DNA of 64,000 bases, from assembly GCF_003334335.1 (NCBI RefSeq), contig NZ_QOWQ01000003.1, one strand, 5' to 3'. The first letter of the stretch is position 1. Each line of letters starts with the position of its first letter. The DNA comes from Escherichia coli (GTDB lineage: Bacteria > Pseudomonadota > Gammaproteobacteria > Enterobacterales > Enterobacteriaceae). The translations under genes were made by a program, and so were the position numbers. Below, piece after piece: positions 1,537 through 13,158 of the stretch. Under the pieces are notes generated by a model. The model searched no databases and was not told the DNA's origin. It saw nothing but the letters and a program-made list of their open reading frames with translations.

Positions 1537-2744
1537 TCCGGTTTTTCTCCCTCGCTGATTTTTACTTCCTGTTTCCATGCCTGGCTGAACTCATCACCAC
1601 CATCACGCGGGGACAGCCCTTCACGTTCGCGGGCTTCGTTCGGGCACATAACGCCGGATTTGATGCCGCGTTCATAGGTGGCAAAGCGTTCGCCAGGTGT
1701 GGCCCGTAACAGGTCCGCGCTGTCAAACTCCACCTGATACCGGATACCAGGTACAGGCGAGGCCACCAGCAGGGCGTTTTTTATCTGCTGCTCAAAGTTC
1801 GCCAGCCACGGGCGCATTGTCATGGTGAGAAATGCGCGGCTTGCCTCGCTGAAATTGCTGTAGGTGCTGTTGCTGTATTCCTGCAGAAAAATCGGCGAGA
1901 CGTTGAACATTCGGGCGATGTCTTCAATGGTGAAGCGACGGGAGGCCAGCCATTCAGCATCCTGATTACTCATGCCCAGCTGCTGATAGCTCATACCCCC
2001 TTCAAGGATGGGCGTTTTTCCGGCGTTTCTGGCCCCTTTGTAGCGTTCCAGTGCGGCTAATGCCTGTTTGCCCTTCACGCCGTCCAGCCATTCGCCTGAC
2101 GTGATAACCCCTGCCGCCATCATGCCATCACGCATCACGCTCGCGCCGTGGCGTTGTTGGGCCAGCCCAAGCCCCAGCGATTCGCGGCAGATGGTTACAG
2201 GTGAGCGCCCCATAAAACCGTCATCCGTGGAGTAACGAAGGTGGAGAACCTCCCACGGTAAATAGTTGCGGGTGTTTCCGGTGTAGGCGTCAGTGATGCA
2301 GTAGCGCCAGTTGTGTTCGCCTGTCTGCTCCACGTTCACCGACTGCGGCGGGTAAGGATGTAAAGCCACCGGAAAACCATCACGCCCCCACTGAATCACC
2401 GCATAAGCATTACCGTTTAACAGGCAGTGGCGGATCATCATTCGCTTAAACTGGTAGGGAGTCTGCCACGCGTTCGGGCGCTCGTTGAGGATGTGATCGA
2501 CCGGATGAGAATCAAGCCACTCGCGGGCCTCCTTCCCCTTCTCATTGCGTACCAGGTACAGGTAACACGGCATGGTAGCCACCGCCTCAGAGATGACCGT
2601 CACGGCGTTCATGACGGCGGGCAGTGATTCCGCTGTCCCCGATGATACGTACTCACCCGCCCCCGTGTTCGATGTGCCAGCCAGCGCCATAAATTCATCA
2701 AGCGTCATGCTGCGCTGCTCTTTTTTTCTTCTGAAAAGCCACAT
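1533..2744 (-). CDS. Portal protein, HK97 family.
   Basis: 403 aa. The sequence and its position next to the prohead protease and HK97-type capsid gene fit HK97-family portals (Phage_portal). Confidence 0.85.
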   Translation of the reverse strand: MWLFRRKKEQRSMTLDEFMALAGTSNTGAGEYVSSGTAESLPAVMNAVTVISEAVATMPCYLYLVRNEKGKEAREWLDSHPVDHILNERPNAWQTPYQFKRMMIRHCLLNGNAYAVIQWGRDGFPVALHPYPPQSVNVEQTGEHNWRYCITDAYTGNTRNYLPWEVLHLRYSTDDGFMGRSPVTICRESLGLGLAQQRHGASVMRDGMMAAGVITSGEWLDGVKGKQALAALERYKGARNAGKTPILEGGMSYQQLGMSNQDAEWLASRRFTIEDIARMFNVSPIFLQEYSNSTYSNFSEASRAFLTMTMRPWLANFEQQIKNALLVASPVPGIRYQVEFDSADLLRATPGERFATYERGIKSGVMCPNEAREREGLSPRDGGDEFSQAWKQEVKISEGEKPE

Positions 2745-3357: not shown

Positions 3358-4515
3358 TTAATCGTCGTCCTGTGGCAGTTCCAGAATCTTGATCGCGTTC
3401 GAATCCACCACGCCACCGCCTAAATATTTCTGCGTGAAAATTTTGATGAAGCCCGGCTCTGTGAGGTTGTCCGGTCTGGTGCGAACACCTGTTTCGTGAT
3501 CAACAATGTAGTAACCGCGTTTGAAGTCACCCAGGGCAATAACGTTATCAGGCATAAACTCCAGATATTCGACCGGAAGGCCCAGCAACGTATCAGGATC
3601 ACCCGCCTGTAAACGGTCACGCCAGATGTAATCACCGTTCGCGTTCTTCACCTTCTGGAGTTTTGCCGCCGTCGTGGAGTTAACCACCCAGACCGCGTTT
3701 TTGCGGTATTTTTTACGTAATGCAAATTTCAGGTCGATCAGCGGGTCCGCAGATGTCCACGCCAGAGATTCGGAAGGTTTAATTACCTGCAACGTACCAA
3801 AATCACGCTCTTTGTCGTTCTTCTCTGCACGGGGTACGGATAAAAAGCCTTTTGCTTTTTTGTCACCGTCGCCCACAACCAGATCGCTTTCTTCGGTTTC
3901 CGTGAAGGTGTCGCCAATCTCGCCCGTCAGCCATGAAAGGATGTCCACATCGGAAAAATCCACGATTTCCTGTGTGGTGCGCGGGTACGCATAGACCGGA
4001 TACAGCTTAATGCTCACCTCGTTAATCTGCGGGGTGCTGGTCTGTTCGCGTGTCTTACCCTCTTCACCGTGGTTAACGGTCGCACCGCCAGCGGAAACAA
4101 GCTGCTTAAACTCGTTGCTGCTGATTTTCTTCACGGTACAGATGCGGCGCATGGTGGATTCATCCGTCAGCATTCGCATGATTTCGGTGTTCAGTTCGGG
4201 GATAACGGTATAACCACCATCAGCGGGAACGCCTGTACTTAATGCGCGGGTTTCACCTGTCAGGATGTAGTTGCGGAGTTCTGCCGGGTCAGTGGTCTGG
4301 CTGCTTTTACCTGGCTTGCTGCGCTCTTCGTCTGCAATGGCTTCAAGGCGGGAAATGTCTTTATCGAGGGATTCAGCTTTAGCGCGTAATTCGTCAAATG
4401 TTGCGCCCTCAGCATCGTTAAGACTGCGGTTTTCTTTTTCCGCGTTCTCCAGCATGTCGCGCATCTGATTTTTAATGGCGGTTTTCTGCTGGCGTAATTC
4501 GATTATTCTCGGCAT
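3358..4515 (-). CDS. Major capsid protein, HK97 family, with an N-terminal scaffolding (delta) domain.
   Basis: 385 aa. A coiled-coil-rich N-terminal stretch of about 100 aa is followed by an HK97-fold-like body. This is typical of HK97-type capsid proteins that need no separate scaffold. Confidence 0.9.
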   Translation of the reverse strand: MPRIIELRQQKTAIKNQMRDMLENAEKENRSLNDAEGATFDELRAKAESLDKDISRLEAIADEERSKPGKSSQTTDPAELRNYILTGETRALSTGVPADGGYTVIPELNTEIMRMLTDESTMRRICTVKKISSNEFKQLVSAGGATVNHGEEGKTREQTSTPQINEVSIKLYPVYAYPRTTQEIVDFSDVDILSWLTGEIGDTFTETEESDLVVGDGDKKAKGFLSVPRAEKNDKERDFGTLQVIKPSESLAWTSADPLIDLKFALRKKYRKNAVWVVNSTTAAKLQKVKNANGDYIWRDRLQAGDPDTLLGLPVEYLEFMPDNVIALGDFKRGYYIVDHETGVRTRPDNLTEPGFIKIFTQKYLGGGVVDSNAIKILELPQDDD

Positions 4516-4554
4516 AAAAAAAGTCCTGGGGTTAAGTAAGGAACTCCAGGACGC
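4516..4554 (-). terminator. Terminator-like hairpin immediately upstream of the capsid ATG. Its 3' arm contains the capsid Shine-Dalgarno sequence.
   Basis: The minus-strand RNA reads GCGTCCTGG-AGTTCCTTACTTAACC-CCAGGAC-TTTTTTT-ATG. That is a 7-bp stem (4523-4529 / 4546-4552), a 16-nt loop and a U7 run. AGGA lies inside the 3' arm, 8 nt before the ATG. Confidence 0.45.
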
Positions 4555-4707
4555 GGCAAAAACTCAACCGTTTTTCATAAGGAAATCAGCAATCGCACCG
4601 ATCGTTTTCCCGCCTGGTAATGAATATTGGCGAGAACATTAACAGGCGGAAAAGTGGCCCCAGCGTCCTGGCACCACGGGCGAGAATAATCATGATTCAG
4701 TTCGGGT

Positions 4708-4755
4708 AAAATATGCCGATCCTGTCAGTGAACAACGTGGAACAACCGCGAACAA
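4708..4755 (-). promoter_or_regulatory. Candidate promoter of the packaging/capsid operon with three helically phased direct repeats.
   Basis: GAACAA on the plus strand (TTGTTC on the minus strand) occurs at 4730, 4740 and 4750, exactly 10 bp apart. The proximal copy sits at a -35 position, 16 bp from a TATTTT -10-like hexamer (4708-4713, minus strand). Confidence 0.35.
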
Positions 4756-4773
4756 ATAATTTACAAAAAATGA

Positions 4774-4796
4774 CAAAAAGCCGGATTGCTCCGGCT
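4774..4796 (-). terminator. Rho-independent terminator after the 74-aa orphan gene.
   Basis: Minus strand: AGCCGGA-gcaa-TCCGGCT followed by TTTTTGTCATTTTTT. Confidence 0.75.
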
Positions 4797-4806
4797 GTAT
4801 GCGTGC

Positions 4807-5031
4807 TCAGTCCCTGATCCCTTTCAGAAATTCTATCAATGCATCTATCTGTTCAGGATTTACCGCCAGCATTTCACCGGACAGAGCACATCTCACAAAA
4901 CCATGCTGATCCTTTTCAATCAGTGCGCCCGTCTCCAGGAATGCGCGGTAATCATTGATGCTCATCGTCTCCATGTTGTCAGCATGGTATTTATCACGCT
5001 GTTTTAATATCTCATCAAATTTCATCGGCAT
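4807..5031 (-). CDS. Hypothetical protein (74 aa) in a stand-alone cassette.
   Basis: Track ORF 4807..5109. The preferred start is ATG 5031 (MPMKFDEILK...), preceded by GAGGAAAA. It is bracketed by two near-identical terminators. No family recognised. Confidence 0.55.
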   Translation of the reverse strand: MPMKFDEILKQRDKYHADNMETMSINDYRAFLETGALIEKDQHGFVRCALSGEMLAVNPEQIDALIEFLKGIRD

Positions 5032-5125
5032 TGTTTTTTCCTCTGTTGTGTCTGTTTGTTTCAGATAGTAACTATGCCTGACCGTGACGAAAACCCGGTA
5101 ATGCGCCATACCGTTTCAACTGGTG

Positions 5126-5150
5126 CAAAAAAAGCCGGATTTCTCCGGCT
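5126..5150 (-). terminator. Rho-independent terminator after the perC-like gene.
   Basis: Minus strand: AGCCGGA-gaaa-TCCGGCT followed by TTTTTTTG. The stem is identical to the terminator at 4774-4796. Confidence 0.75.
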
Positions 5151-5156
5151 GTGTGA

Positions 5157-5429
5157 TTAGCTGTCCTGGTAATTTCGCCATATTTCATCACCAGCACCAT
5201 CCATACCCATTTCGGCATAAGTGCGATCGACCGCCTTTTTCAGGTCTCCGTAATTATCCGGCGGCTCCGGTGGCCTCTGTGCCTTCCTGGAACATTCCAG
5301 CCGTCGCATCGTAACCTGATGCCGTTCCTTGTCTGTCTCCACCAGCAGCATGACTTCACCCCATCGCGCCGACGCCCTCCGGTAAAAGCCTTTTGCCTCG
5401 AGTTCCTCCGCTATGCGGTCATGTACCAT
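5157..5429 (-). CDS. PerC-family transcriptional regulator-like protein (90 aa).
   Basis: Start taken at MVHDRIAEELEAKGFYRRASARWGEVM... (ATG 5427-5429, RBS GAGGGGG, 10 nt after the ssb stop). The AEELE..G.YRRA..RW.EV motif resembles PerC/Pch proteins. Confidence 0.6.
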   Translation of the reverse strand: MVHDRIAEELEAKGFYRRASARWGEVMLLVETDKERHQVTMRRLECSRKAQRPPEPPDNYGDLKKAVDRTYAEMGMDGAGDEIWRNYQDS

Positions 5430-5439
5430 CGTCACCCCC

Positions 5440-5850
5440 TCAGAACGGAATATCATCACCGTAGGGGTCATCGTCTCCCGCTGGTGGCTGATTACCCTGT
5501 GTGCCTGTGGTTTTGCGTCTGTTCCCGCCAGGACGTGCCGCACGGGCACTGATTACGCTGTCTGCAATAACCTGATACCCCTGTCGTGTTTCCCCGTTCT
5601 GTCCGGTCCACTGGCTTACCTGCATCGTGCCGGATACGCTGGCAACATCGCCTTTTTGATGTTTAGCCAGGAAATCGGCCTGTTTGCCAAATGCGATAAC
5701 CGATAACCATAACGTCGCCTGTCCGTCATGTGCTTGGCTGCATGGCAACGATACCGCCATACGCGCCAGAGTCATCGGTGTGCCCTTGCTGCTCTGTTTT
5801 ACCAGCGGGTCGTCCACCAGGCGCCCGTAAGCTGCAATTTGTGCTGTCAT
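5440..5850 (-). CDS. ssb: Single-stranded DNA-binding protein.
   Basis: 136 aa with an OB-fold-like N-terminus, a Gly/Pro/Gln-rich linker and the diagnostic acidic tail DDDPYGDDIPF. Confidence 0.9.
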   Translation of the reverse strand: MTAQIAAYGRLVDDPLVKQSSKGTPMTLARMAVSLPCSQAHDGQATLWLSVIAFGKQADFLAKHQKGDVASVSGTMQVSQWTGQNGETRQGYQVIADSVISARAARPGGNRRKTTGTQGNQPPAGDDDPYGDDIPF

Positions 5851-5859
5851 ATTGCCACC

Positions 5860-6165
5860 TCAGTGAAGCGATCCGGCGTTGTTCTTTTTCATCTCTTCCA
5901 TCATTTTTTCAGTGAGCATTACGCACTGAAAACCCATGTTTTTGATGTCTACGGGTTTCATGCCTTTGTCAGTGGATATCACAGGCAGAATATCCTGATA
6001 CACATCGCGGTCAGGGTAACTAAGCACACAAAGCGCCCATGATGCCACGGGTGAGGATCCTTCGTCTGTTTCAACCCACCAGCCTGGTGTAGCTGCGCTT
6101 ATTTGCTGAATCGTGATCCGTCCGTTGTGCTTGTAAAGTTTTTCACCAAATTTTGGTTCGCTCAT
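5860..6165 (-). CDS. Hypothetical protein (101 aa).
   Basis: Track ORF in the same operon. Its start overlaps the upstream stop by 4 nt (6162-6165). No family recognised. Confidence 0.5.
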   Translation of the reverse strand: MSEPKFGEKLYKHNGRITIQQISAATPGWWVETDEGSSPVASWALCVLSYPDRDVYQDILPVISTDKGMKPVDIKNMGFQCVMLTEKMMEEMKKNNAGSLH

Positions 6166-6413
6166 GATTCCAACTCTCCGGTTTTAACGTTGATTGTTGT
6201 TACCTGTTCCGCTTCGGCAATCTCACGTTCTGTCAGCGTGGCAAAGTTTGCCGCTGCTGTGGTCATGAATGCGCTTATCAGGTCGGGATGTTCTTTCGCG
6301 TATCCTTCCCCCGCGTGGCGGTCTATCGTTCTGATTGCCACCTTTAAGGCGTGCTCTGTCATGTCTAACGCTTTATATTTTGGCTCTGTTCTGTCTCTGT
6401 GTTTTTGAGTCAT
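6162..6413 (-). CDS. Hypothetical protein (83 aa).
   Basis: Track ORF 6162..6545. The start is moved to ATG 6413 (MTQKHRDR...) because the upstream 44 codons lie in the iteron array. Confidence 0.45.
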   Translation of the reverse strand: MTQKHRDRTEPKYKALDMTEHALKVAIRTIDRHAGEGYAKEHPDLISAFMTTAAANFATLTEREIAEAEQVTTINVKTGELES

Positions 6414-6617
6414 TTGCCCACCTCTACCCACTTTTTTCGCCCACTTTTTACGTTTTCCCACTTCGTCCAACGTGGGAAATTTGGGATTTATATCATCTTG
6501 TTTCATAGGTATTTTTTTAGTGCCCACTTTTTGGGATATATACACGTGGGAAAGTGGGTAATTTTGTTAAAATTACGTTAAATCGCCCACCTTTCCCACT
6601 TTTAATGCCCACTTTTT
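6414..6617. repeat. Iteron array, the probable satellite origin of replication.
   Basis: There are 11 copies of the core CCCAC(T/C)TT. Eight are direct (about 6416, 6427, 6439, 6456, 6522, 6585, 6594, 6607), several as GCCCACTTTTT. Three are inverted (6472, 6546, 6554). They flank an AT-rich spacer (6480-6521). The array starts on the stop codon of the rep helicase gene. Confidence 0.7.
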
Positions 6618-8013
6618 ACAGTGGTCCTACATCATCACCGTCAATGTAGATCACGTCGTCTTTTTCCAGTTTGGCTAACCATCGTTTAAGGTGTTTTGTG
6701 TCATACCCCAGCTTTTTCATATCGTCACGTAACAGCGGGATCGTGCACTTGTCGCCGTGCTGTGTGCGTGAACGTATGCACCCCCATAGCGCGGTATGGT
6801 TTTCCGTCTTGTTGCCTGCCTCCTCGATGCGCTCCAGTTCAACGGGAGGGCGCGGCTTATCCACCACCACCAGCGACGTGATTAACTCCCCGTCAGCGTC
6901 GGTAAAAAGCTCCACCACCCGCAAATCATAGGCAGCCTCTTTGAGTTCCTCCGCGTCCTTCATTTTGGTGCATGAGATAACCAGCGCTTCGCTTCCTGCG
7001 TCCTCCCTGCGTATCCGGTATTCAGCATCCAGCGAAGCACGAAATGCACTGGAACCGCGCGCGCCTTTCGTCTCATCCTTGCCGGAATGGTGAACCACCA
7101 GCACCGTGGCCCCTGTGCGCCGTTTAAGCTCGTCACACCCACGGATAAACGCCCCCATATCACGGGAATCATTTTCATCATTGCCACCAAAGCAACGCGC
7201 CAGAGTATCAAGAATAATCATGCGTACAGGTTTACCCGTTTCCCGCTCCACCTGACGGGCAGCGATAACCAGTTCATCAACATCAAGCGGGACAGCCGGA
7301 AAAACTGGACGGTTTACCAGATACAGATTTTTCACCTGCTCACCGTGCACAACCTCCCAGGCTTTTACACGACGCGGAACGCCGATACCGCCTTCACCAA
7401 CCACATAGAGAACAGCGCCATGCGCCACCCTGCGGCCTCCCCACTGGCGGCCCGTGGAAACGTGACACGCCCACGAACCCGCAAGGAATGATTTATAGGA
7501 ACCGCTTGCCCCGTATATGCTGCATAGCGACGATGCCGGAATAATCCCCTTTACCACGTAATCTAATTGCGTGTCGTATCCGGCAGATCCAACGCTCATC
7601 GGTAGCGTGGTTTTTCGCTGGTGGTGTTCTTCCCCTGGCTTTTTCCCCCGCTCCCGTTCCAGATATTCGCGCCAGTTCTCCCGCTTCTGGCTGTGTATCC
7701 CTTCGGGGTAATAATTCGCATCAGTTACGCCCGCCGCCGCCAGCTTGTGCGCAATGGCATTAATATTTGATGGCCTGATGTGGCCTGCCTTGTACAGCCG
7801 GACACAATAGCGCCCCTCGTCGATGATTCTCAGGTCTGCCAGTTCATCCAGTTGATCATCAGCCAGCACAATGGGAGGCACATTATCGCCAGCCAGTCGC
7901 CCGTCCTGTTCCTGCCACTGTTTCGCATGTGCCCACGCATCACTACCCGCAAAAATGATGACTTCGGTCATCTTGTCGTAAGGCTGTTTTTTTAAGTTCG
8001 GTGCGCTTTTCAT
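6616..8013 (-). CDS. Replication initiator/helicase, RepA-like (AAA_25 / RecA-fold ATPase).
   Basis: 465 aa with Walker A GASGSYKS and Walker B MIILD, followed by VVHHSGKDETKGARGSS, typical of RepA/AAA_25 helicases of plasmids and satellites. I could not recognise a primase (toprim/EGYATA) motif in the N-terminal 150 aa. Confidence 0.8.
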   Translation of the reverse strand: MKSAPNLKKQPYDKMTEVIIFAGSDAWAHAKQWQEQDGRLAGDNVPPIVLADDQLDELADLRIIDEGRYCVRLYKAGHIRPSNINAIAHKLAAAGVTDANYYPEGIHSQKRENWREYLERERGKKPGEEHHQRKTTLPMSVGSAGYDTQLDYVVKGIIPASSLCSIYGASGSYKSFLAGSWACHVSTGRQWGGRRVAHGAVLYVVGEGGIGVPRRVKAWEVVHGEQVKNLYLVNRPVFPAVPLDVDELVIAARQVERETGKPVRMIILDTLARCFGGNDENDSRDMGAFIRGCDELKRRTGATVLVVHHSGKDETKGARGSSAFRASLDAEYRIRREDAGSEALVISCTKMKDAEELKEAAYDLRVVELFTDADGELITSLVVVDKPRPPVELERIEEAGNKTENHTALWGCIRSRTQHGDKCTIPLLRDDMKKLGYDTKHLKRWLAKLEKDDVIYIDGDDVGPL

Positions 8014-8309
8014 TTCTTGCCCCTGAATCCGTTAATCATGTTTTTCATCTTCTGAATATTGGCGCGTGCTTTCTCCCTGCTGGTGGGCACGTTACGCGGT
8101 ACGGCCTGCACCAGAGAAAAATCACGCCGGAACTGATAAACAGGCATCACGCAATCATATTCGTAACTTTCACGACGGTAGGTTACGCGCCGTTCCTCCA
8201 CGCCCTTAATCATTACCGTGCCGCCGTACTGGTCGCGGTAAATATCACCGCGCGTAAATTTAGGGTGAGTGTTGCCACTGGCAGTTAAGCCAGAATATTT
8301 AAGTTTCAT
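8010..8309 (-). CDS. Small protein (99 aa), possibly DUF4222-like.
   Basis: Track ORF whose stop overlaps the rep start (8010-8013). The central YRD..G..V.I..V...RVTYRRE.YE..CVMP...F motif resembles prophage DUF4222 proteins. The family call is tentative. Confidence 0.5.
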   Translation of the reverse strand: MKLKYSGLTASGNTHPKFTRGDIYRDQYGGTVMIKGVEERRVTYRRESYEYDCVMPVYQFRRDFSLVQAVPRNVPTSREKARANIQKMKNMINGFRGKK

Positions 8310-8314
8310 TATTT

Positions 8315-8548
8315 TTATTCTCCGGTGTGCTGTTCGTTATATCTGTCGTGCAATGTCTCTATTTCTTGTAGTTCCATTATTACAGGCTCAAGAAGCGTTA
8401 TTAATGCCGTGACAATTCTTGATTTTTGTTTGTCGCGTTCATTGTCGCCAAGTGTTTCAAGCCATATGCGCAATATTTCCAGCATGTTTTCACTGTGAGA
8501 AAGTGCAAGAAATACGCGTTCTGTTGTTTCGTGGTAAATATCACGCAT
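8315..8548 (-). CDS. Hypothetical protein (77 aa).
   Basis: Track ORF in the co-oriented early operon. No family recognised. Confidence 0.45.
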   Translation of the reverse strand: MRDIYHETTERVFLALSHSENMLEILRIWLETLGDNERDKQKSRIVTALITLLEPVIMELQEIETLHDRYNEQHTGE

Positions 8549-8620
8549 GGCTTACATCCTCAGGAAATTTTCTTCTGTAACGCGCCTCTGCCACATATTC
8601 CGCATAATCGGCGGCGATAT

Positions 8621-8773
8621 TCAGTACATCAAGCCCGTTGATTTATATTCTCTCGTGGAAAGTAAGAAAAAAGCCGCTCTAATAAGTTCTGGCATTGACG
8701 AAAGCGCATCAGCCGCATCATCAGGAACGCCGGAAAATTCTTGTTTCAGGGAATTAAAACGATCATCACGCAT
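8621..8773 (-). CDS. Hypothetical protein (about 50 aa).
   Basis: Track ORF 8621..8821. The start is placed at MRDDRF (ATG 8773), which overlaps the upstream stop (ATGCGTGA). Weak call. Confidence 0.3.
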   Translation of the reverse strand: MRDDRFNSLKQEFSGVPDDAADALSSMPELIRAAFFLLSTREYKSTGLMY

Positions 8774-8996
8774 AACCCCCCCCATTTTCACAATCAGCAA
8801 CAAGAATATTTTTAGCGTCATTCAGCGACCGCGTTGCGGTGTATCGGATACATTCCAGGGCGAATAGTGTGTATTCTTCCCTTTCTTCCCTTTCTTCCTT
8901 TTGTGCAAGCTCTGCTGTGCATTCAATATCAATAAGCGCGTGCATCAGCGTAGTGAGTGCGGCGGCGGCTGCGTCCGGTGTGGTTTTATTGCACAT
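8766..8996 (-). CDS. Hypothetical acidic protein (76 aa).
   Basis: Track ORF 8766..9050. The start is placed at MCNKTT (ATG 8996), preceded by GGAGGGG. It contains an EEREEREE acidic stretch. Confidence 0.4.
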   Translation of the reverse strand: MCNKTTPDAAAAALTTLMHALIDIECTAELAQKEEREEREEYTLFALECIRYTATRSLNDAKNILVADCENGGGYA

Positions 8997-9216
8997 GTAC
9001 CCCTCCGCATTTTTTTTCGTTAGAAATAAGCGTTCTTCTTTCCTGTTCATCGATCAGGAATACGCAGACCTCACCGCTAAGGCGTTTAAGTAAGCCGATG
9101 ATTGCCCCTGATTCGCTGTCGGTCATCATGCCTGGGTAATCCTCTGCCAGTGCGCAAATAACTTCGATTTGGTGGGCGCGTTCTGCTGCCTGTTGTAGTG
9201 TGATTTCCTGGCTCAT
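8986..9216 (-). CDS. Hypothetical protein (76 aa).
   Basis: Track ORF. Its ATG overlaps the stop of the icd-like gene (ATGA at 9213-9216). Confidence 0.45.
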   Translation of the reverse strand: MSQEITLQQAAERAHQIEVICALAEDYPGMMTDSESGAIIGLLKRLSGEVCVFLIDEQERRTLISNEKKCGGVHVQ

Positions 9217-9413
9217 AAGCCTACCCCCTGACGAATACGGGCAGCGAATACCATCACGCAGCCAGCCGGGGATTGCAGGCGTGCTTCCTGTTCGCTGGTG
9301 GCCTCAATGGTAATCACGCGCGGTTGTGCAGTGCTCAGGGCGATAAAACGCCAAATGTATTTATTCAGGTTGTGCGAGTCCCGCCCTTGCGGGTGTGTGG
9401 TATGATTTCTCAT
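9213..9413 (-). CDS. Icd-like (P4-type cell division inhibitor-like) small protein, 66 aa.
   Basis: These are the last 66 codons of the 340-aa track ORF (MRNHTTHPQGRDSHNLNKYIWRFIAL...), with a GAGG RBS. They resemble proteins annotated as Icd-like in P4-like elements, as I recall them. This is the first gene downstream of the leftward promoter. Confidence 0.55.
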   Translation of the reverse strand: MRNHTTHPQGRDSHNLNKYIWRFIALSTAQPRVITIEATSEQEARLQSPAGCVMVFAARIRQGVGL

Positions 9414-9510
9414 AGCTACCTCGATACTCTCGTTATCGTTGGTGGTTAGAAGCCCGGTTAGTGTTAGCGCACTGCCGGGTTTCGTCGTTTCTGCACCTTG
9501 CGCCAACAAG

Positions 9511-9583
9511 GTGTTGAACACCAATTTAAACCCAGGTGTTAAACACGTCAAGTGTTGAACACTTATTTTTTTTCCTGCATACT
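9511..9583. promoter_or_regulatory. Back-to-back divergent promoters with three 11-bp palindromic operators.
   Basis: GTGTTGAACAC lies at 9511-9521, GTGTTAAACAC at 9536-9546 and GTGTTGAACAC at 9552-9562. The leftward promoter has -35 TTGACG (9546-9551) and -10 TAAATT (9523-9528) with a 17-bp spacer. The rightward promoter has -35 TTGAAC (9555-9560) and -10 CATACT (9578-9583) with a 17-bp spacer. Confidence 0.6.
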
Positions 9584-9612
9584 GCATTTGTTTTTTATGA
9601 GGGGTACACCAC

Positions 9613-9792
9613 ATGGCGACAAAAGCAGTAAACGCAAAATCACAAACCGTTGCGGCAAGGGTTCCGCATGAAGTTATGAACAATGTTGAGGCGGTAAAAA
9701 TGCCTGGCGAAAGTACGGGGCAATTTGTTACTGCAGCATTAAAACGAGAAGTTGAATATCGCCAGCGGCGCAAGGCCAAAGAACCAGAGTAA
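9613..9792 (+). CDS. Ribbon-helix-helix (CopG/Arc-like) DNA-binding protein, 59 aa. Candidate satellite repressor.
   Basis: Not in the ORF track (<60 aa). ATG at 9613 with GAGGGG upstream. MATKAVNAKSQTVAARVPHEVMNNVEAVKMPGESTGQFVTAALKREVEYRQRRKAKEPE shows the strand / helix / G-x-S-x / helix pattern of RHH proteins. It is the only plus-strand gene next to the operators. Confidence 0.55.
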   Translation: MATKAVNAKSQTVAARVPHEVMNNVEAVKMPGESTGQFVTAALKREVEYRQRRKAKEPE

Positions 9793-9849
9793 TCACCATC
9801 AGCGCCGTGGTGTAAGGTATTACGGCGCATTGCTATGCAGGACAACACA

Positions 9850-10023
9850 ATGACCGATAAAGAATTGACCAAAACATTATCACCGGCACGGAAAAGACGG
9901 CGCAGAAAGATAGAGCATGAATCAGAAAGATTCGCGCCATGTGCTTTTGCCCTTGAGCAATTCCTTAAAGAGTACAGGGAAAAGCGCTCATTGCAGGTAT
10001 GGCAACGAACTGAACCAGACTGA
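9850..10023 (+). CDS. Hypothetical basic protein (57 aa).
   Basis: Track ORF 9835..10023. ATG 9850 has AGGA 7 nt upstream. It carries an RKRRRRK stretch and is co-oriented with the RHH gene, before a strong terminator. Confidence 0.35.
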   Translation: MTDKELTKTLSPARKRRRRKIEHESERFAPCAFALEQFLKEYREKRSLQVWQRTEPD

Positions 10024-10118
10024 TAGCATTGCCCACCAGCCTGATAGCGACTATCATTGCCGTTCTTATGTTTGGGATCACACACACAAACGGCGCAGCG
10101 GGTTATCTGTTCAGAAAG

Positions 10119-10146
10119 GCGGCTCCATTTCGGGGCCGCTTTTTTT
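10119..10146 (+). terminator. Rho-independent terminator of the short rightward (RHH) transcription unit.
   Basis: GCGGCTCC-atttc-GGGGCCGC (8-bp stem with one G-U pair) followed by TTTTTTT. Confidence 0.75.
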
Positions 10147-10292
10147 ATACCTGAAAAACCCCAATTTTGTTGTTTTTCAGTTTCACCAGGGCGAACGAAT
10201 CCCCGCCCACGTTCTGGCGTATATTCAATCTTCATGGTTATAGCTCTGTGTTCAGATGATTGATGTGTGGCGGCTGCGTGCCGCCAGCGTGA

Positions 10293-10481
10293 TTAATGAA
10301 CTGCCTTGCAGCTATCCTTCCAGGCCAGAACCTCGGATAAAGACCAGCCAACGGAACGACCGCCAAGTTTACGACGTGATGGGAATTGTCCGGCCTTTTC
10401 CAGGCGGTAGCGACACGTACGGCTAAGGCCGGTTAGTTTTTCGCATTCTTTTTCACGTATAAACCGATCAGTGCTTAACAC
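10293..10481 (-). CDS. alpA: AlpA-family (MerR-type HTH) phage/satellite transcriptional regulator.
   Basis: The C-terminal 62 aa read LSTDRFIREKECEKLTGLSRTCRYRLEKAGQFPSRRKLGGRSVGWSLSEVLAWK, a classic AlpA signature. The likely start is GTG 10481, preceded by AGGGGGG. The track ORF extends to ATG 10562. Confidence 0.8.
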   Translation of the reverse strand: MLSTDRFIREKECEKLTGLSRTCRYRLEKAGQFPSRRKLGGRSVGWSLSEVLAWKDSCKAVH

Positions 10482-10632
10482 TATTGCCCCCCTTTCGTTT
10501 CTTAAAGAGTCATCAGGTGTCTTATTGTGTCGTATTGTTCCCGCTAGAGTGATGAATGGCAAATATTGAGGATGTATTATTTACAGAAAATGAAACAGTA
10601 AGAATAAAATCTTTTAAATTCATGTTAATACA

Positions 10633-10665
10633 AAGGCATAAAATATTGTTTCATGCCTTTTTTTT
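10633..10665 (+). terminator. Orphan terminator-like hairpin on the plus strand in the int-alpA intergenic region.
   Basis: AAGGCATAAAA-tattg-TTTCATGCCTT (one mismatch) followed by a T-run ending at 10665. No plus-strand gene lies upstream, so the function is unknown. Confidence 0.4.
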
Positions 10666-10813
10666 CGCTCTTTAAAGAGTGATTCGCTAGTGTATAAAAA
10701 ACCAGTGACACATTAAAAATCAGCCACTTATAAATCTGTATGCTTTTTCGCCTCTTGTTCGTGGTTGTTCCACATTGTTGCTCATTGTTGCACGTTGTAT
10801 CTGTTCGCATATC

Positions 10814-10829
10814 CAGTATGCGCATACTG
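10814..10829. promoter_or_regulatory. Perfect 16-bp palindrome CAGTATGCGCATACTG just downstream of int. Candidate protein-binding site.
   Basis: The palindrome is seen directly. No U-run follows on either strand, so it is not a canonical terminator. Confidence 0.3.
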
Positions 10830-10846
10830 AAAAAACACGAAAAAAA

Positions 10847-12076
10847 TTATTTTCTTCTGGCTACGGGTAGCGTGGTTACGTTTTCATGTGTTCCCGCCAG
10901 TATCCCTAACCGCTCCGTCCACATATCCAGCGCATTGCGTTTAGCATCCAGATAACGGGAATGATTATAAACTCGCTGCATTCCTGGCATCTGGTGGCCT
11001 GTAAGCTGCTCCACGACATGCGGATCAACGCCTAAATCGTTCAGCATGGTTGTAAAGGTGCGCCGGATGTCATGCAGTGACCAGTGAGGATGATTAAGCC
11101 TCCTGTGCGCTAATCTTCCATACTGCGATACGCTGGCCTCCTGTTTCACTTCCCCCAGCAATAAGCCCGTGTGCCTGTTCTGCTCCACCAGCTGCGTGAC
11201 GAACGGCAGGATCGCTTCCGGTATGGGCCGGAATATTGCGACCTTCGTTTTGCTGTGCTCCTTCGGAACGGTCCATAGCATTTCCGTAAAATCCCACTCC
11301 CCGATCTCCGATAACCTCAGTTCTACCGTTCTGGCTCCGAAGACAATCAGGAGGCGGATTAACGCGACGTAGTAAGGGGAGAATATTTTTTTGTCCAGTG
11401 CCTGCAATAATTCGCCAAGTTCTTTGTTACTTAAGACACGTTCGCTTATATCCGGTTTTTTCCCAACGTCCGCCACGTTCAGATCGTCCAGAACGTTGCT
11501 GATTGCATAGCGCCGCCTACGGCAGAACTTAAGCGCCTGTTTGCACGCCTGTAGCACGAATCCGGCAGTAACAGGCGTTCGCTTTGCCACCTGGTCAAAA
11601 CAGGCCAGCCAGTGCCGTAGCTCGCATTTATCCAGCGGCATAGCACCAATCTGCTGTATTACGTGATTATTAAGTCGCCTTTTCAGGGCGATATAATCCA
11701 CGCGGTTTTCCTTTACGTAATACTCAAGCCAGTAGGTGAGCGCATCGCCAACCGTTACGGGCTTTAACGCTTCCTGTACGGTGTAATTCATCTCATGACG
11801 TGGATTTTTCCCCTCAGCCAGCCATGTGCGACACTGTGCGGCTTTTTCCCTGGCTGCTTTCAGGCTCAGATCAGGATAACTTCCCAGCTTAATGCGTTCG
11901 GGTCGTGTCTCCCTTCCCGTTCCGGCCCTGTATGTGAAATACCAGGTCAATTTCCCTGATGTTAAATATTTCACGCTCAGGTTTCCGCCATCACTATAAA
12001 ACGTGTTTTTCTCCGCTGGCTTACCATGAAGTTTCCTTAGCAAGGTATCGCTCAGTTTGTTCATTGCTCTGCTCAC
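10847..12076 (-). CDS. int: Tyrosine integrase, P4-like (DUF4102 N-terminal domain).
   Basis: 409 aa. It has tyrosine-recombinase catalytic-type motifs (GARTVELR, HDIRRT, YNHSRY). The GTG start at 12076 is preceded by GAGGGGG. It lies adjacent to the junction with tqsA. Confidence 0.92.
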   Translation of the reverse strand: MSRAMNKLSDTLLRKLHGKPAEKNTFYSDGGNLSVKYLTSGKLTWYFTYRAGTGRETRPERIKLGSYPDLSLKAAREKAAQCRTWLAEGKNPRHEMNYTVQEALKPVTVGDALTYWLEYYVKENRVDYIALKRRLNNHVIQQIGAMPLDKCELRHWLACFDQVAKRTPVTAGFVLQACKQALKFCRRRRYAISNVLDDLNVADVGKKPDISERVLSNKELGELLQALDKKIFSPYYVALIRLLIVFGARTVELRLSEIGEWDFTEMLWTVPKEHSKTKVAIFRPIPEAILPFVTQLVEQNRHTGLLLGEVKQEASVSQYGRLAHRRLNHPHWSLHDIRRTFTTMLNDLGVDPHVVEQLTGHQMPGMQRVYNHSRYLDAKRNALDMWTERLGILAGTHENVTTLPVARRK

Positions 12077-12099
12077 GTTTTACCCCCTCTTTACGAAAA

Positions 12100-12123
12100 A
12101 GTGACTACACCAGTGACTACACC
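12100..12123. repeat. Tandem 12-bp repeat AGTGACTACACC x2 between int and the att junction. Candidate integrase arm-type sites.
   Basis: Exact tandem duplication seen at 12100-12111 and 12112-12123, within the 175 bp that separate the int start from the tqsA junction. Confidence 0.4.
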
Positions 12124-12251
12124 GATCGTTGCACAAAGGGCTACAACGTGAAACAAGCTGGAACAAGGAAAATCACAAATCTGTTGATAATCAAAAACAT
12201 AATGCACAGCCTGAAACATTATGAAACAGCAAAAAACACTAAATGATAAAA

Positions 12252-13158
12252 TGCTGTTATTCTTAACCCGCTGGTGCAACACATGGTCCGCTGGCGTGTG
12301 CCGCGTGTACTGGCGGTGTCGATTTTGATGACCATCATCGTGATGGCGATGGTGTTGCTATTAGCTTATCTGGGTTCCGCGCTCAACGAGTTGACGCGGA
12401 CGTTACCGCAATATCGCAACTCTATTATGACGCCGCTGCAAGCGCTTGAAGCGTTGTTGCAACGCGTAGGGATTGACGTCTCAGTTGACCAGCTGGCGCA
12501 TTATATTGATCCGAACGCGGCGATGACGTTGCTCACCAACTTATTGACGCAGTTATCTAATGCCATGTCATCAATATTTTTATTGCTGCTGACGGTGCTG
12601 TTTATGCTGCTCGAAGTGCCACAATTGCCCGGAAAATTTCAGCAAATGATGGCGCGTCCGGTTGAAGGGATGGCGGCGATTCAACGTGCGATTGACAGTG
12701 TTTCTCATTATCTGGTGCTGAAAACAGCCATCAGCATCATCACCGGCCTGGTCGCCTGGGCGATGCTCGCCGCACTCGATGTTCGCTTCGCTTTTGTCTG
12801 GGGATTGCTGGCCTTTGCGCTTAATTACATCCCGAATATTGGTTCAGTCCTCGCGGCAATCCCCCCTATCGCTCAGGTACTGGTGTTTAATGGCTTCTAC
12901 GAAGCGTTGCTGGTGCTGGCGGGATATCTGCTGATTAATCTGGTCTTCGGCAATATTCTGGAGCCGCGTATCATGGGGCGTGGGCTGGGGCTTTCCACAT
13001 TGGTGGTATTTTTGTCGTTGATTTTTTGGGGATGGTTGTTAGGACCGGTGGGTATGCTGCTTTCCGTGCCGTTGACAATTATTGTCAAAATTGCGCTTGA
13101 ACAAACAGCGGGAGGTCAAAGCATCGCCGTTCTGTTAAGCGATCTCAATAAAGAGTGA
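12252..13158 (+). pseudogene. tqsA: tqsA (AI-2 exporter, AI-2E family), 5'-truncated by the satellite insertion.
   Basis: From 12253 the frame reads [22 protein letters not shown]... to the normal C-terminus ...VLLSDLNKE, matching K-12 TqsA from about residue 44 onward. An in-frame TAA lies at 12247-12249 with non-homologous island DNA upstream. Only a GTG (12274) or ATG (12283) restart is available. Confidence 0.85.

Follow-up and report, generated by a model that had tools for sequence, protein, structure and literature searches.

How is a Gram-negative phage satellite kept quiet in the chromosome of its host, when no repressor is known for satellites of this kind? The question is raised by a short region of the Escherichia coli chromosome, in a capsid-forming PICI (cf-PICI) inserted in tqsA, where three palindromes lie between an Icd-like gene and a divergent small gene. 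We analysed this region within a window of 64 kb (the whole stretch of DNA under study) and compared it with related islands. The answer that we propose is a small, swappable control cassette, in which a predicted ribbon-helix-helix (RHH) protein is matched by three putative operators on the early promoter of the satellite. This cassette provides a testable repressor candidate.

Palindromes and promoters

The palindromes read GTGTTGAACAC, GTGTTAAACAC and GTGTTGAACAC (GTGTT-N-AACAC; positions in Table 1) and they are the only exact matches to GTGTTNAACAC in the window. Four other hits have one mismatch each and are scattered, whereas about 2.45 hits at up to one mismatch are expected by chance. 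As an exact palindrome with 10 specified bases is expected about 0.06 times in 64 kb, three copies within 52 bp are far beyond chance.

The palindromes interleave with two divergent sigma-70-like promoters. A consensus scan found the leftward promoter with 9 of 12 matches. The rightward promoter is present in the sequence, but it scores only 8 of 12 and the scan did not report it. The original prediction, which described the palindromes, both promoters, a 59-aa gene, a 57-aa gene and a strong terminator, was therefore confirmed as an observation. One correction is needed, because one palindrome had been said to cover both -35 boxes. Actually, the third palindrome covers the rightward -35 but only abuts the leftward one, and it is the second palindrome that overlaps the last base of the leftward -35.

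The terminator is formed by a GC stem (10118-10139) followed by U7 up to 10146, with a fold of -23.7 kcal/mol (z = -4.1). Conservation of the palindromes in related islands had been named as a check beforehand, and all 65 fetched loci that encode this RHH type keep the three palindromes at the same spacing, the only variation being at the central, non-palindromic base.

Table 1. Features of the cassette and its neighbours, with positions in the window; promoters, operators and the antisense RNA are predictions.
Feature	Position	Strand	Description
O1	9511-9521		Putative operator, GTGTTGAACAC; 2 bp downstream of the leftward -10, over the predicted leftward transcription start (about 9516)
O2	9536-9546		Putative operator, GTGTTAAACAC; in the spacer of the leftward promoter
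O3	9552-9562		Putative operator, GTGTTGAACAC; on the rightward -35
P_left	9523-9551	-	Predicted early promoter: TTGACG (9551-9546), 17-bp spacer, TAAATT (9528-9523); would drive the icd-like gene, the small ORFs, the AAA_25 replication protein, ssb and perC
P_right	9555-9583	+	Predicted weak promoter of the RHH gene: TTGAAC (9555-9560), 17-bp spacer, CATACT (9578-9583); predicted rightward transcription start about 9590
RHH gene	9613-9792	+	59-aa YlcI/YnfO-family protein, candidate operator-binding repressor
ORF2	9850-10023	+	57-aa basic protein of unknown function, downstream of the RHH gene
Terminator	10113-10146	+	Intrinsic terminator of the rightward transcript
Antisense RNA	9414-9490	+	Predicted cis-antisense small RNA, SymR-like, about 77 nt; complementary to the leader, Shine-Dalgarno sequence and start region of the icd-like mRNA
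Extended -10-like element	9398-9406	+	TGgTATGAT, inside the icd-like coding sequence; candidate promoter of the antisense RNA (inferred only)
Icd-like gene	9213-9413	-	66 aa, first gene of the leftward operon, with a good Shine-Dalgarno sequence (GAGG)
Stop-free frame	9213-10235	-	340 codons, in phase with the icd-like gene; antisense through the operators, the RHH gene, ORF2 and the terminator; open up to the alpA stop codon (10293-10295)
alpA	10293-10481	-	Phage_AlpA, published activator of Gram-negative PICIs, upstream of the cassette on the strand of the early operon; PGAP's GTG start (the longest ORF starts at a TTG at 10562)

Genes of the island

The island has the arrangement of a Gram-negative cf-PICI, with int, alpA, the cassette, the Icd-like gene, DUF4222, a replication protein (an AAA_25-domain protein in the window, annotated as a DNA primase family protein in the near-identical RefSeq island), ssb, perC and HK97 capsid genes. 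AlpA was identified by Pfam PF05930 (E = 1.5e-16) and PGAP annotation, and its function is taken from PMC6092414 and PMC11773190. The Icd-like protein matched NF033153 (69.1 bits) and phrog_6196 and is annotated as such by PGAP, although PHROGs labels this family 'transcriptional repressor'.

The 59-aa protein scored 59.7 bits against NCBIfam NF041551 (YlcI/YnfO family; cutoff 30), and RefSeq gives it this name in a 98.6%-identical island. Therefore the gene was not entirely unknown, although no function of it was found in the literature that we could search. It is predicted to have the N-terminal strand followed by two helices, about 45 residues in all, of the MetJ/Arc/CopG superfamily, and UniRef names a 57%-identical homologue a CopG-like RHH. 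However, no Pfam RHH family (Arc PF03869, RHH_1 PF01402 and others) reached its gathering threshold with this protein. The Arc-like proteins of allelic cassettes gave only sub-threshold Arc, RHH_1 and HicB hits, whereas the YnfO-like variants matched DUF3950 above threshold. Pfam gave no meaningful hit for ORF2 or the Icd-like protein either. ORF2 matched phrog_21027, shows a protein-like conservation pattern, was found in E. coli and Shigella only, and is annotated by PGAP in CFT073.

Alternative cassettes in related islands

The main evidence is comparative. Next to Icd-like genes that are 92-100% identical in nearly all IMG/VR loci, the fetched loci carry more than 20 different small RHH proteins. 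Most cassette types repeat their own 9-12 bp motif at three fixed positions, about -100, -76 and -31 from the RHH ATG in the YlcI-type cassettes, or in two to three copies in the shorter Arc-like cassettes. Other RHH types have a different type-specific motif at the position of O1, and in every YlcI-type cassette the 12 bp before the conserved (G/T)TCAA, where O2 lies, carry the type-specific motif. In most other cassette types the third site lies just after the rightward -10 instead of at the position of O3. The same AlpA protein (WP_000953272.1) sits beside both the GTGTTGAACAC type and the GGTAATTACC type, and therefore the only cassette-specific protein is the RHH. The module is also present in the model islands, namely EcCICFT073 (the GGTGTGGCCCAC type) and the O157 cf-PICI next to roxA (the GGTAATTACC type).

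The variation among the RHH proteins is concentrated in residues 11-15, before an invariant R16. These residues align by hhalign with the Arc beta-strand, the predicted DNA-reading strand; in Arc, Q9, N11 and R13 contact bases. Strand similarity predicts operator similarity (Mantel r = 0.51, p = 5e-5). Nevertheless, this covariation could partly reflect linkage within one recombining cassette, so the argument rests on the triple repetition within each cassette rather than on the Mantel test alone.

The promoter geometry is also conserved. A promoter of 7-11 of 12 matches sits at the place of P_left in all 21 cassette representatives examined, with TTGAC conserved in most. A rightward -10 (mostly TATACT) ends 29-30 nt before the RHH ATG in most cassette types, but its -35 region is poor and T-rich.

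A one-mismatch palindrome at the alpA start (10471-10481) was considered as a fourth operator and rejected, because the same sequence is present in islands with other RHH types.

Antisense RNA and stop-free frame

Two further layers had been missed by the original prediction. One is the putative antisense RNA over the icd ribosome-binding site. Rfam SymR scored 33.0 bits in the window and 40.4 bits at the homologous place in the locus L004, both below the gathering score of 61, and at gathering thresholds Rfam gave no hit over the whole window. The sub-threshold hits align over the whole model. The plus strand folds at -34.2 kcal/mol against -22.1 kcal/mol for the minus strand, and it is more stable in 57 of 57 leaders. 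Furthermore, 12 of 19 pairs show compensatory changes, which was reached by 0 of 500 shuffles. The candidate -10 is TGgTATAAT in the Nissle island, and -10-like elements sit at the matching place in diverged loci.

The other layer is the stop-free frame. In 20 of 22 cassette representatives the in-phase frame has 0 stops in the intergenic region and the RHH gene, against 0-9 stops in each of the other two frames. The median was 263 open codons over 65 unique loci, the frame is 367 codons in CFT073, and in Klebsiella its start overlaps the stop of the upstream gene (ATGA). The shuffle probabilities were 0.03-0.18 per full-length YlcI-type cassette. However, the frame is closed or frameshifted in about a third of loci and in Edwardsiella and Pectobacterium. 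The periodicity of substitutions could not decide between ORF2 and this frame, because both share wobble positions.

Proposed mechanism

We consider it more likely than not that the region is the control cassette of the island and that its RHH protein is an island-specific, self-regulated repressor of the early promoter. In this view, the protein would be made from the weak rightward promoter and would bind the three GTG-N5-CAC operators, presumably as a dimer. O1 over the start site and O2 in the spacer would shut the strong leftward promoter, and with it the icd-like gene and the replication operon, whereas O3 would limit the synthesis of the protein itself. It would thus act as a maintenance or immunity repressor, in the manner of P22 Mnt at Pant/Pmnt, and the many alternative protein/operator pairs would let different islands be controlled independently (heteroimmunity). 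A constitutive SymR-like antisense RNA would be a second lock, neutralising leaky leftward transcripts.

Induction most likely does not need an antirepressor. Published work on EcCICFT073 found that AlpA is an activator, that it is required for induction, that AlpA over-expression alone, without a helper phage, starts excision and replication, that helpers act by switching on alpA, and that a reporter fused to 'ORF3' downstream of alpA depends on alpA (PMC6092414). We propose that AlpA-driven transcription from upstream reads leftward through the cassette and is translated all the way through the stop-free frame, which would protect it from Rho and from the hairpins. It would also collide with rightward transcription, so that repressor supply falls and P_left opens. 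This read-through part is pure inference.

What the analysis establishes is the sequence features, their conservation, the covariation and the fold prediction, whereas DNA binding, repression, the transcription starts, the existence of the RNA, the induction steps and read-through are all inferred. Some points weaken the proposal. P_right is weak by consensus, the operator centres are 25 and 16 bp apart, which is not an obvious arrangement for cooperative RHH binding, and, since AlpA over-expression alone induces EcCICFT073, the RHH protein may be dispensable for the on/off decision.

A wider reading remains possible, although we hold it only tentatively. The early operon of Gram-negative PICIs would have two modes of expression. 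In the quiescent mode, the repressor and the antisense RNA would lock P_left and the icd start. In the induced mode, AlpA-driven transcription would be translated continuously through a frame of about 300 codons that runs antisense across the terminator, ORF2, the RHH gene, the promoters, the operators and the RNA gene and fuses to Icd. The cassette would then be a regulatory module overprinted on the opposite strand of a frame that selection keeps free of stop codons for the act of translation and not for its protein sequence, and the passing polymerase would switch the repressor off by convergent interference.

Alternative explanations

The interpretation in the original prediction was only partly supported. 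The comparison supports that the palindromes are cognate sites of the divergently encoded small protein, that this protein has an RHH fold, that the sites sit on a conserved strong leftward promoter and on the protein's own promoter, and that the analogy with P22 Arc/Mnt is apt. However, the original prediction also proposed that the protein is the Stl-equivalent master repressor, inactivated by a helper-phage protein, and this appears unlikely. The divergent layout does resemble stl-str, the hypervariability of the RHH proteins would be expected in an arms race with phage inducers, some variants carry a C-terminal extension of about 45 aa that could bind a partner, and a phage accessory protein (the T7-group orf24 of Silas et al.) triggers Icd-dependent growth arrest from a related element in ECOR61. 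But the AlpA data mean that antirepression cannot be the only or obligatory trigger, the 59-aa form is essentially a bare DNA-binding domain without a sensor domain, and variation that is concentrated in the DNA-reading strand and tracks the operators fits specificity divergence better than inducer escape. It is even less likely that the cassette mainly guards a toxic abortive-infection effector, with the Icd-like cell-division inhibitor kept silent until a phage signal and control of replication being secondary. The SymR-like layout matches a type I toxin-antitoxin design, and the ECOR61 data implicate the Icd-like protein as the effector of the phage-triggered arrest. Nevertheless, adjacent ORFs overlap by 4 nt at two points (Icd-like with the next ORF, and DUF4222 with the replication protein), which suggests one translationally coupled operon reaching the replication gene, so the same promoter would also control replication. 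Moreover, no PADLOC defence family matched any of the five proteins searched, and reconstituting the ECOR61 effect needed all six linked genes.

Two other explanations are very unlikely. An RHH gene followed by a small basic protein, with palindromes near its own promoter and a shared terminator, is the usual order of a type II antitoxin-toxin pair, in which the palindromes would serve only autoregulation. We rejected this because ORF2 is missing from the Xenorhabdus, Klebsiella, Pectobacterium and Edwardsiella loci, which keep the RHH gene and its three sites, because ORF2 matches no toxin, Pfam or PADLOC family, and because two of the three sites lie on the opposite promoter in every YlcI-type cassette. 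The repeats might instead be bound by AlpA, a host factor or a helper-phage regulator, as the assignment to the RHH protein is made without binding data and a one-mismatch copy overlaps the alpA start. However, islands with an identical AlpA and near-identical Icd-like proteins have entirely different repeats, the alpA-start copy does not follow the RHH type, and a host factor could not explain more than 15 different motifs at the same positions.

Comparison with known systems

i) Phage P22 immI. In P22 a small RHH maintenance repressor (Mnt) is encoded divergently from the operon it silences, its operator lies within back-to-back overlapping promoters, so that repressing the strong promoter should favour the weak promoter of the repressor, and a small antisense RNA (sar) covers a ribosome-binding site in the regulated operon. 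The cassette shares this design by prediction only. It has one RHH protein instead of two, and three separate 11-bp sites rather than one operator of 17-21 bp. The regulated genes would be an Icd-like gene and a replication operon, and no Ant or BRO domain was found among the leftward ORFs scanned, although some related islands carry BRO or AntA/AntB genes (PMC13612085). There is no detectable sequence relationship beyond the fold (hhalign E = 0.009, probability 4%), and the cassette sits inside a stop-free antisense frame downstream of alpA.

ii) Phage P1/P7 immI (c4, icd, ant) and P4 CI RNA immunity. An icd-type gene opens the operon and an antisense RNA controls its translation. In P1, translation of icd is needed for transcription to continue downstream because of Rho-dependent polarity, which is the logic that we propose for the stop-free frame. 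C4/isrK-type immunity RNAs have been noted in some Gram-negative PICIs (PMC10111431). The RNA predicted here would be a true cis-antisense RNA transcribed from inside icd, it gave no Rfam C4 or isrK hit, and a protein repressor with operators would be added.

iii) Stl (Rpr) repressors of SaPIs and PICIs of Gram-positive cocci. The candidate repressor is likewise encoded divergently from the replication operon of a satellite, with sites in the intergenic region on P_left and with highly diverse alleles. However, Stl proteins are much larger helix-turn-helix proteins with inducer-binding domains. They are inactivated by helper proteins, whereas induction of Gram-negative PICIs goes through AlpA (PMC6092414). 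The 59-aa protein has a predicted RHH fold and no further domain.

iv) SymR/SymE of E. coli (Rfam RF01809). SymR is a two-hairpin RNA of about 77 nt encoded opposite the 5' end of a toxic-protein gene, with its promoter inside the coding sequence (PMC1891008), and the predicted RNA has this position. The target differs, as it is an Icd-like protein and not the AbrB-fold SymE, and its promoter would be controlled by an RHH protein rather than by LexA.

v) Immunity regions of lambdoid phages (cI-OR-cro). Interchangeable repressor-plus-operator cassettes are flanked by conserved sequence, and three operators are shared by divergent promoters. But the candidate repressor has a predicted RHH fold, not a helix-turn-helix fold, and no S24 self-cleavage domain. 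No Cro-like antagonist was recognised, since the first leftward gene is Icd-like, the next ORFs show no DNA-binding domain and ORF2 has no recognisable domain. Therefore a bistable two-repressor switch is not supported, with the caveat of the PHROGs label of the Icd-like family.

vi) Plasmid RHH regulators (CopG, omega of pSM19035). The genetic context is different, and so are repeat length and spacing, 11 bp at 25 and 16 bp centre-to-centre rather than contiguous heptads.

Occurrence and relevance

Literature searches on YlcI/YnfO function, a cf-PICI repressor, RHH proteins in PICIs and SymR with Icd found no description of this cassette. The control of Gram-negative PICIs is only half understood, and a later preprint calls the gene downstream of alpA variable and of unknown function (10.1101/2025.02.11.637232). 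The cassette sits in exactly that place in EcCICFT073 and in the O157 cf-PICI, and in the O157 record it is unannotated and a pseudogene is called over it. It offers a concrete repressor candidate, a candidate antisense RNA and a natural set of more than 20 matched protein/operator pairs, useful as orthogonal parts and as a readout of RHH recognition rules.

An Rfam search of 10400-11000 for the int-alpA RNA gave no hit, although that family is present in the Pectobacterium locus L003. The phage-genome collection gave a single hit, a 16.5 kb "induced prophage" record that is probably itself a cf-PICI, and therefore the family looks satellite-specific. These islands, which move virulence, resistance and defence genes, are widespread, and the 1.1 kb query matched 1704 of 5426 complete E. 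coli genomes.

Structure of the island and of the control region

We found a phage satellite of the capsid-forming PICI kind in the window. An integrase gene and alpA lie on the minus strand, and after an interval come an Icd-like gene, small ORFs, a DUF4222 gene and a gene for an AAA_25-domain replication protein, the position at which the near-identical RefSeq island has a DNA primase family protein. These are followed by ssb, perC and HK97-type capsid genes. A RefSeq chromosome that is 98.6% identical over the query shows the island inserted in tqsA, next to pntBA, and RefSeq annotates the remaining tqsA as missing its N-terminus.

Coordinates of the features of the island and of related loci
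Feature	Sequence	Coordinates	Strand	Remarks
Phage satellite	window	about 3358-12076		capsid-forming PICI kind
Integrase	window	10847-12076	-
alpA	window	10293-10481	-	PGAP's GTG start; the longest ORF starts at 10562; stop codon 10293-10295
Icd-like gene	window	9213-9413	-
AAA_25-domain replication protein	window	6616-8013
ORF2	window	9850-10023	+	57 aa
Rfam SymR match	window	9414-9486	+	below the gathering score
Predicted antisense RNA	window	9414-9490	+	about 77 nt
Extended -10 element	window	9398-9406	+	TGgTATGAT; inside the Icd-like coding sequence
Stop-free frame	window	9213-10235	-	340 codons; open to the alpA stop codon
One-mismatch copy of the operator	window	10471-10481		GTGCTTAACAC
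GC-rich hairpin	window	about 10266-10284	minus-strand transcript	GGCGGCACGCAGCCGCC; no U run
Conserved inverted repeat	window	about 10190-10222	minus-strand transcript	inside the first codons of the long frame
Interrupted tqsA region	window	12054-12960
Arc-like RHH gene and ORF2	L017 (O157:H7 island next to roxA)	2264-2498		not annotated in RefSeq
Rfam int-alpA RNA (RF02996)	L003 (Pectobacterium island)	5853-5921		above the gathering threshold

The finding concerns the interval between alpA and the Icd-like gene. The observation of the original prediction held, since the three palindromes, both proposed promoters, the 59-aa and 57-aa ORFs and the terminator are all where they had been placed. 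The palindromes are the only exact GTGTTNAACAC copies in 64 kb. The predicted leftward promoter is a good consensus match (TTGACG, 17-bp spacer, TAAATT), whereas the predicted rightward promoter (TTGAAC, 17-bp spacer, CATACT) is weak and fell below the threshold of the promoter scan. However, one detail needs correcting, because the third palindrome, which had been said to cover both -35 boxes, covers the rightward -35 and only abuts the leftward one. A one-mismatch copy of the operator also overlaps PGAP's GTG start codon of alpA, but the same sequence is present in islands with other RHH types and therefore it is probably coincidental.

Regarding the flanking intervals, a GC-rich hairpin lies directly after the alpA stop codon, and a second, conserved inverted repeat is found downstream of it. 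The Rfam int-alpA RNA scores above its gathering threshold in a related Pectobacterium island, whereas the int-alpA interval of the window has no counterpart.

The small protein

The 59-aa protein matches the NCBIfam YlcI/YnfO family (59.7 bits against a cutoff of 30) and phrog_949, and it has no Pfam hit. An AlphaFold model built on 29 homologues (pLDDT 79) has an extended segment at residues 10-18, followed by helices at 19-28 and 35-56. A Foldseek search found nothing significant. Nevertheless, hhalign places KSQTVAARVPHEV opposite KMPQFNLRWPREV of Arc, so that the invariant R16 corresponds to Arc R13, and the variable residues 11-15 cover the Arc positions that read bases. The evidence for the RHH fold is consistent but statistically modest. 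We found no published function for YlcI/YnfO proteins.

Comparison of cassette types

The core of the case is comparative. We retrieved 15 loci from reference genomes and 137 from IMG/VR, and we added the annotated regions of an O157:H7 strain, Nissle 1917 and CFT073. These loci come largely from E. coli and its relatives and are not phylogenetically independent. Beside Icd-like genes that are 92-100% identical in nearly all IMG/VR loci, the divergent small gene encodes one of more than 20 different proteins. Most of them are of the YlcI/YnfO type, 59-106 aa long, and some are Arc/CopG-like, 57-64 aa long and ending in RGIEPKG. Some RHH variants of 99-106 aa (in the related loci L020, L021, L041, L071, L091 and others) carry a shared C-terminal extension (…AEGSGENPL..S..ALAQVEKLGIKAAEEIGQLVTVAREELQRRK) that could mediate oligomerisation or partner binding.

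Each type has its own motif, repeated at the same places. In the YlcI-type cassettes these places are just after the leftward -10, in the leftward spacer next to a conserved TTGAC, and just after a conserved rightward -10 (TATACT), about 30 nt before the ATG. The window type is unusual only in having its third site at the rightward -35.

Repeated motifs of different RHH types
RHH type (strand residues or locus)	Repeated motif
KKLEA	GTGTCAGCCAC
AKKNI	TGTGCGCACA
QKLQA	TGGATTCCA
QALKA (EcCICFT073)	GGTGTGGCCCAC
O157 Arc-like protein	GGTAATTACC
Another Arc-like protein	GGTGTACACC
Klebsiella locus	GTGYACCCCCAC

An identical AlpA protein (WP_000953272.1) sits beside both the GTGTTGAACAC and the GGTAATTACC cassettes, and the Icd-like protein is nearly constant. 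Therefore, the RHH protein is the only cassette-specific protein that could impose three matching sites, and we infer from this comparison that it is the binder.

Specificity appears to map to the predicted strand. Variation among the proteins is concentrated in residues 11-15, and proteins with similar strands have similar sites: QMTTV and QLTTV go with GTGTrTTTCAy, whereas QSLTA and QSVTA go with GTGTAAG. A Mantel test of strand distance against site distance gave r = 0.51 (p = 5e-5). Linkage within a cassette inflates such a test, so we give more weight to the triple repetition within each cassette. All 65 loci of the window type keep the three palindromes and vary only at the central base.

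The 57-aa ORF2 has a conserved core, SPxRKRRRRK..EHESERFAPCAFxLExFLKEY. It is confined to E. coli and Shigella islands and matches no known family.

A predicted antisense RNA and a stop-free frame

A match to the Rfam family SymR was found on the plus strand, at 33 bits against a gathering score of 61, and it recurs at the homologous place in a Pectobacterium locus (L004) with 40.4 bits, also below threshold. The segment is antisense to the leader, Shine-Dalgarno sequence and start of the Icd-like mRNA. It starts just after an extended -10 element, which reads TGgTATAAT in Nissle, and it ends in a hairpin followed by a U-rich run. Across 57 distinct leaders the plus strand folds at a mean of -34.2 kcal/mol, against -22.1 for the minus strand, and it is the more stable strand in all 57 because of many G-U pairs. 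In an alignment of 20 sequences, 95% of the cells pair and 12 of 19 pairs show compensatory changes, which none of 500 shuffles reached, whereas slid controls fell to 35-50%. The layout matches SymR/SymE, where the promoter of the RNA lies within the toxin gene (PMC1891008). However, by the threshold of Rfam this predicted RNA is not a member of that family.

The minus-strand frame in phase with the Icd-like gene is free of stop codons and passes antisense through the operators, the RHH gene, ORF2 and the terminator. Over 65 unique loci the median open length upstream of the icd ATG is 263 codons, while the other two frames carry a dozen or more stops each in nearly all loci. In 20 of 22 cassette representatives the in-phase frame has no stop in the intergenic region or the RHH gene. 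Dinucleotide shuffles of the operator part alone gave a stop-free probability of 0.03-0.18 per full-length YlcI-type cassette. The amino-acid composition of the RHH gene makes its antisense frame fairly easy to keep open (0.13-0.82), and therefore the signal comes mainly from the non-coding part. The RHH ATG lies at an offset of 1 mod 3 from the icd ATG in 20 of 22 cassettes, so the two strands share wobble positions.

The frame is 367 codons long in CFT073, where it starts 38 nt after alpA. In Klebsiella its ATG overlaps the stop of the upstream gene, and in Xenorhabdus it spans from near alpA to icd. Its sequence is not conserved across cassettes, so what is preserved, across most cassette types and in CFT073, O157, Nissle, Klebsiella and Xenorhabdus, is openness and not a protein. 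PGAP calls pieces of it "Icd-like, incomplete" pseudogenes.

Proposed mode of action

The sequence features, their conservation and the covariation come directly from the analysis, whereas everything that concerns DNA binding, repression, transcript ends, the existence of the RNA and read-through is predicted. From geometry and analogy, the RHH protein would most likely bind the first two palindromes (O1 and O2) to block the strong early promoter, P_left, and the third (O3) to limit its own promoter, P_right. As the -35 boxes are 3 bp apart, shutting P_left should also free P_right, as at Pant/Pmnt of P22. The antisense RNA would be a second lock on the icd start. The diversity of cassettes is best read as heteroimmunity between islands.

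It has been published that AlpA is required for induction, activates its own promoter and is switched on by helper phages, that its over-expression alone suffices for excision and replication of EcCICFT073, and that a reporter fused to "ORF3" downstream of alpA depends on alpA (PMC6092414; see also PMC11773190). EcCICFT073 carries this very cassette, and therefore induction can bypass or override the RHH protein. We propose, as an inference, that AlpA-driven transcripts read leftward through the cassette while being translated in the stop-free frame. Translation would protect them from Rho-dependent termination, which is the logic of P1 immI and P4 immunity, and they would also interfere with convergent RHH transcription. 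In this view P_left would matter when no repressor is present, for example on entry into a new cell, or once the supply of repressor falls.

Alternative explanations

The interpretation given in the original prediction was only partly supported, and the support does not extend to its proposal that the RHH protein is an Stl-like master repressor relieved by an inducer from the helper phage. Such an antirepressor model remains possible but unlikely, because the AlpA data and the bare-domain size of the protein weaken it. The cassette might instead mainly guard a toxic Icd effector, a defence reading which fits the result from ECOR61, where the data implicate an Icd-like protein in phage-triggered growth arrest, although the same promoter probably also drives replication genes. 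A toxin-antitoxin pair made of the RHH protein and ORF2 fails as an explanation, since ORF2 is missing from the Xenorhabdus, Klebsiella, Pectobacterium and Edwardsiella loci, which keep the RHH gene and its sites, and moreover ORF2 matches no toxin, Pfam or PADLOC family. Finally, binding of the repeats by AlpA or a host factor is excluded, on the sequence evidence, by the cassette-specific motifs beside an identical AlpA.

Relation to known systems

In working terms the closest match is P22 immI (Mnt). The cassette combines elements of P1 immI, where icd comes first under antisense RNA control, and of SymR/SymE, and it also has the cassette-swapping behaviour of lambdoid immunity regions. The protein belongs to the RHH superfamily, by its predicted fold, and to the YlcI/YnfO family. 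On the other hand, it is not a member of the Stl family, and the cassette is neither a lambda CI/Cro switch nor a toxin-antitoxin pair.

The cassette is not described in the literature that could be searched. One paper recognises a "dynamic zone" with P4-type immunity RNAs in some Gram-negative PICIs (PMC10111431), and another notes a variable gene of unknown function downstream of alpA. The cassette bears directly on the question of how Gram-negative PICIs are kept silent, and it sits in the model islands. In the O157 cf-PICI (locus L017), the equivalent Arc-like RHH gene (57 aa) and ORF2 lack an annotation, and a pseudogene is called on the opposite strand instead.
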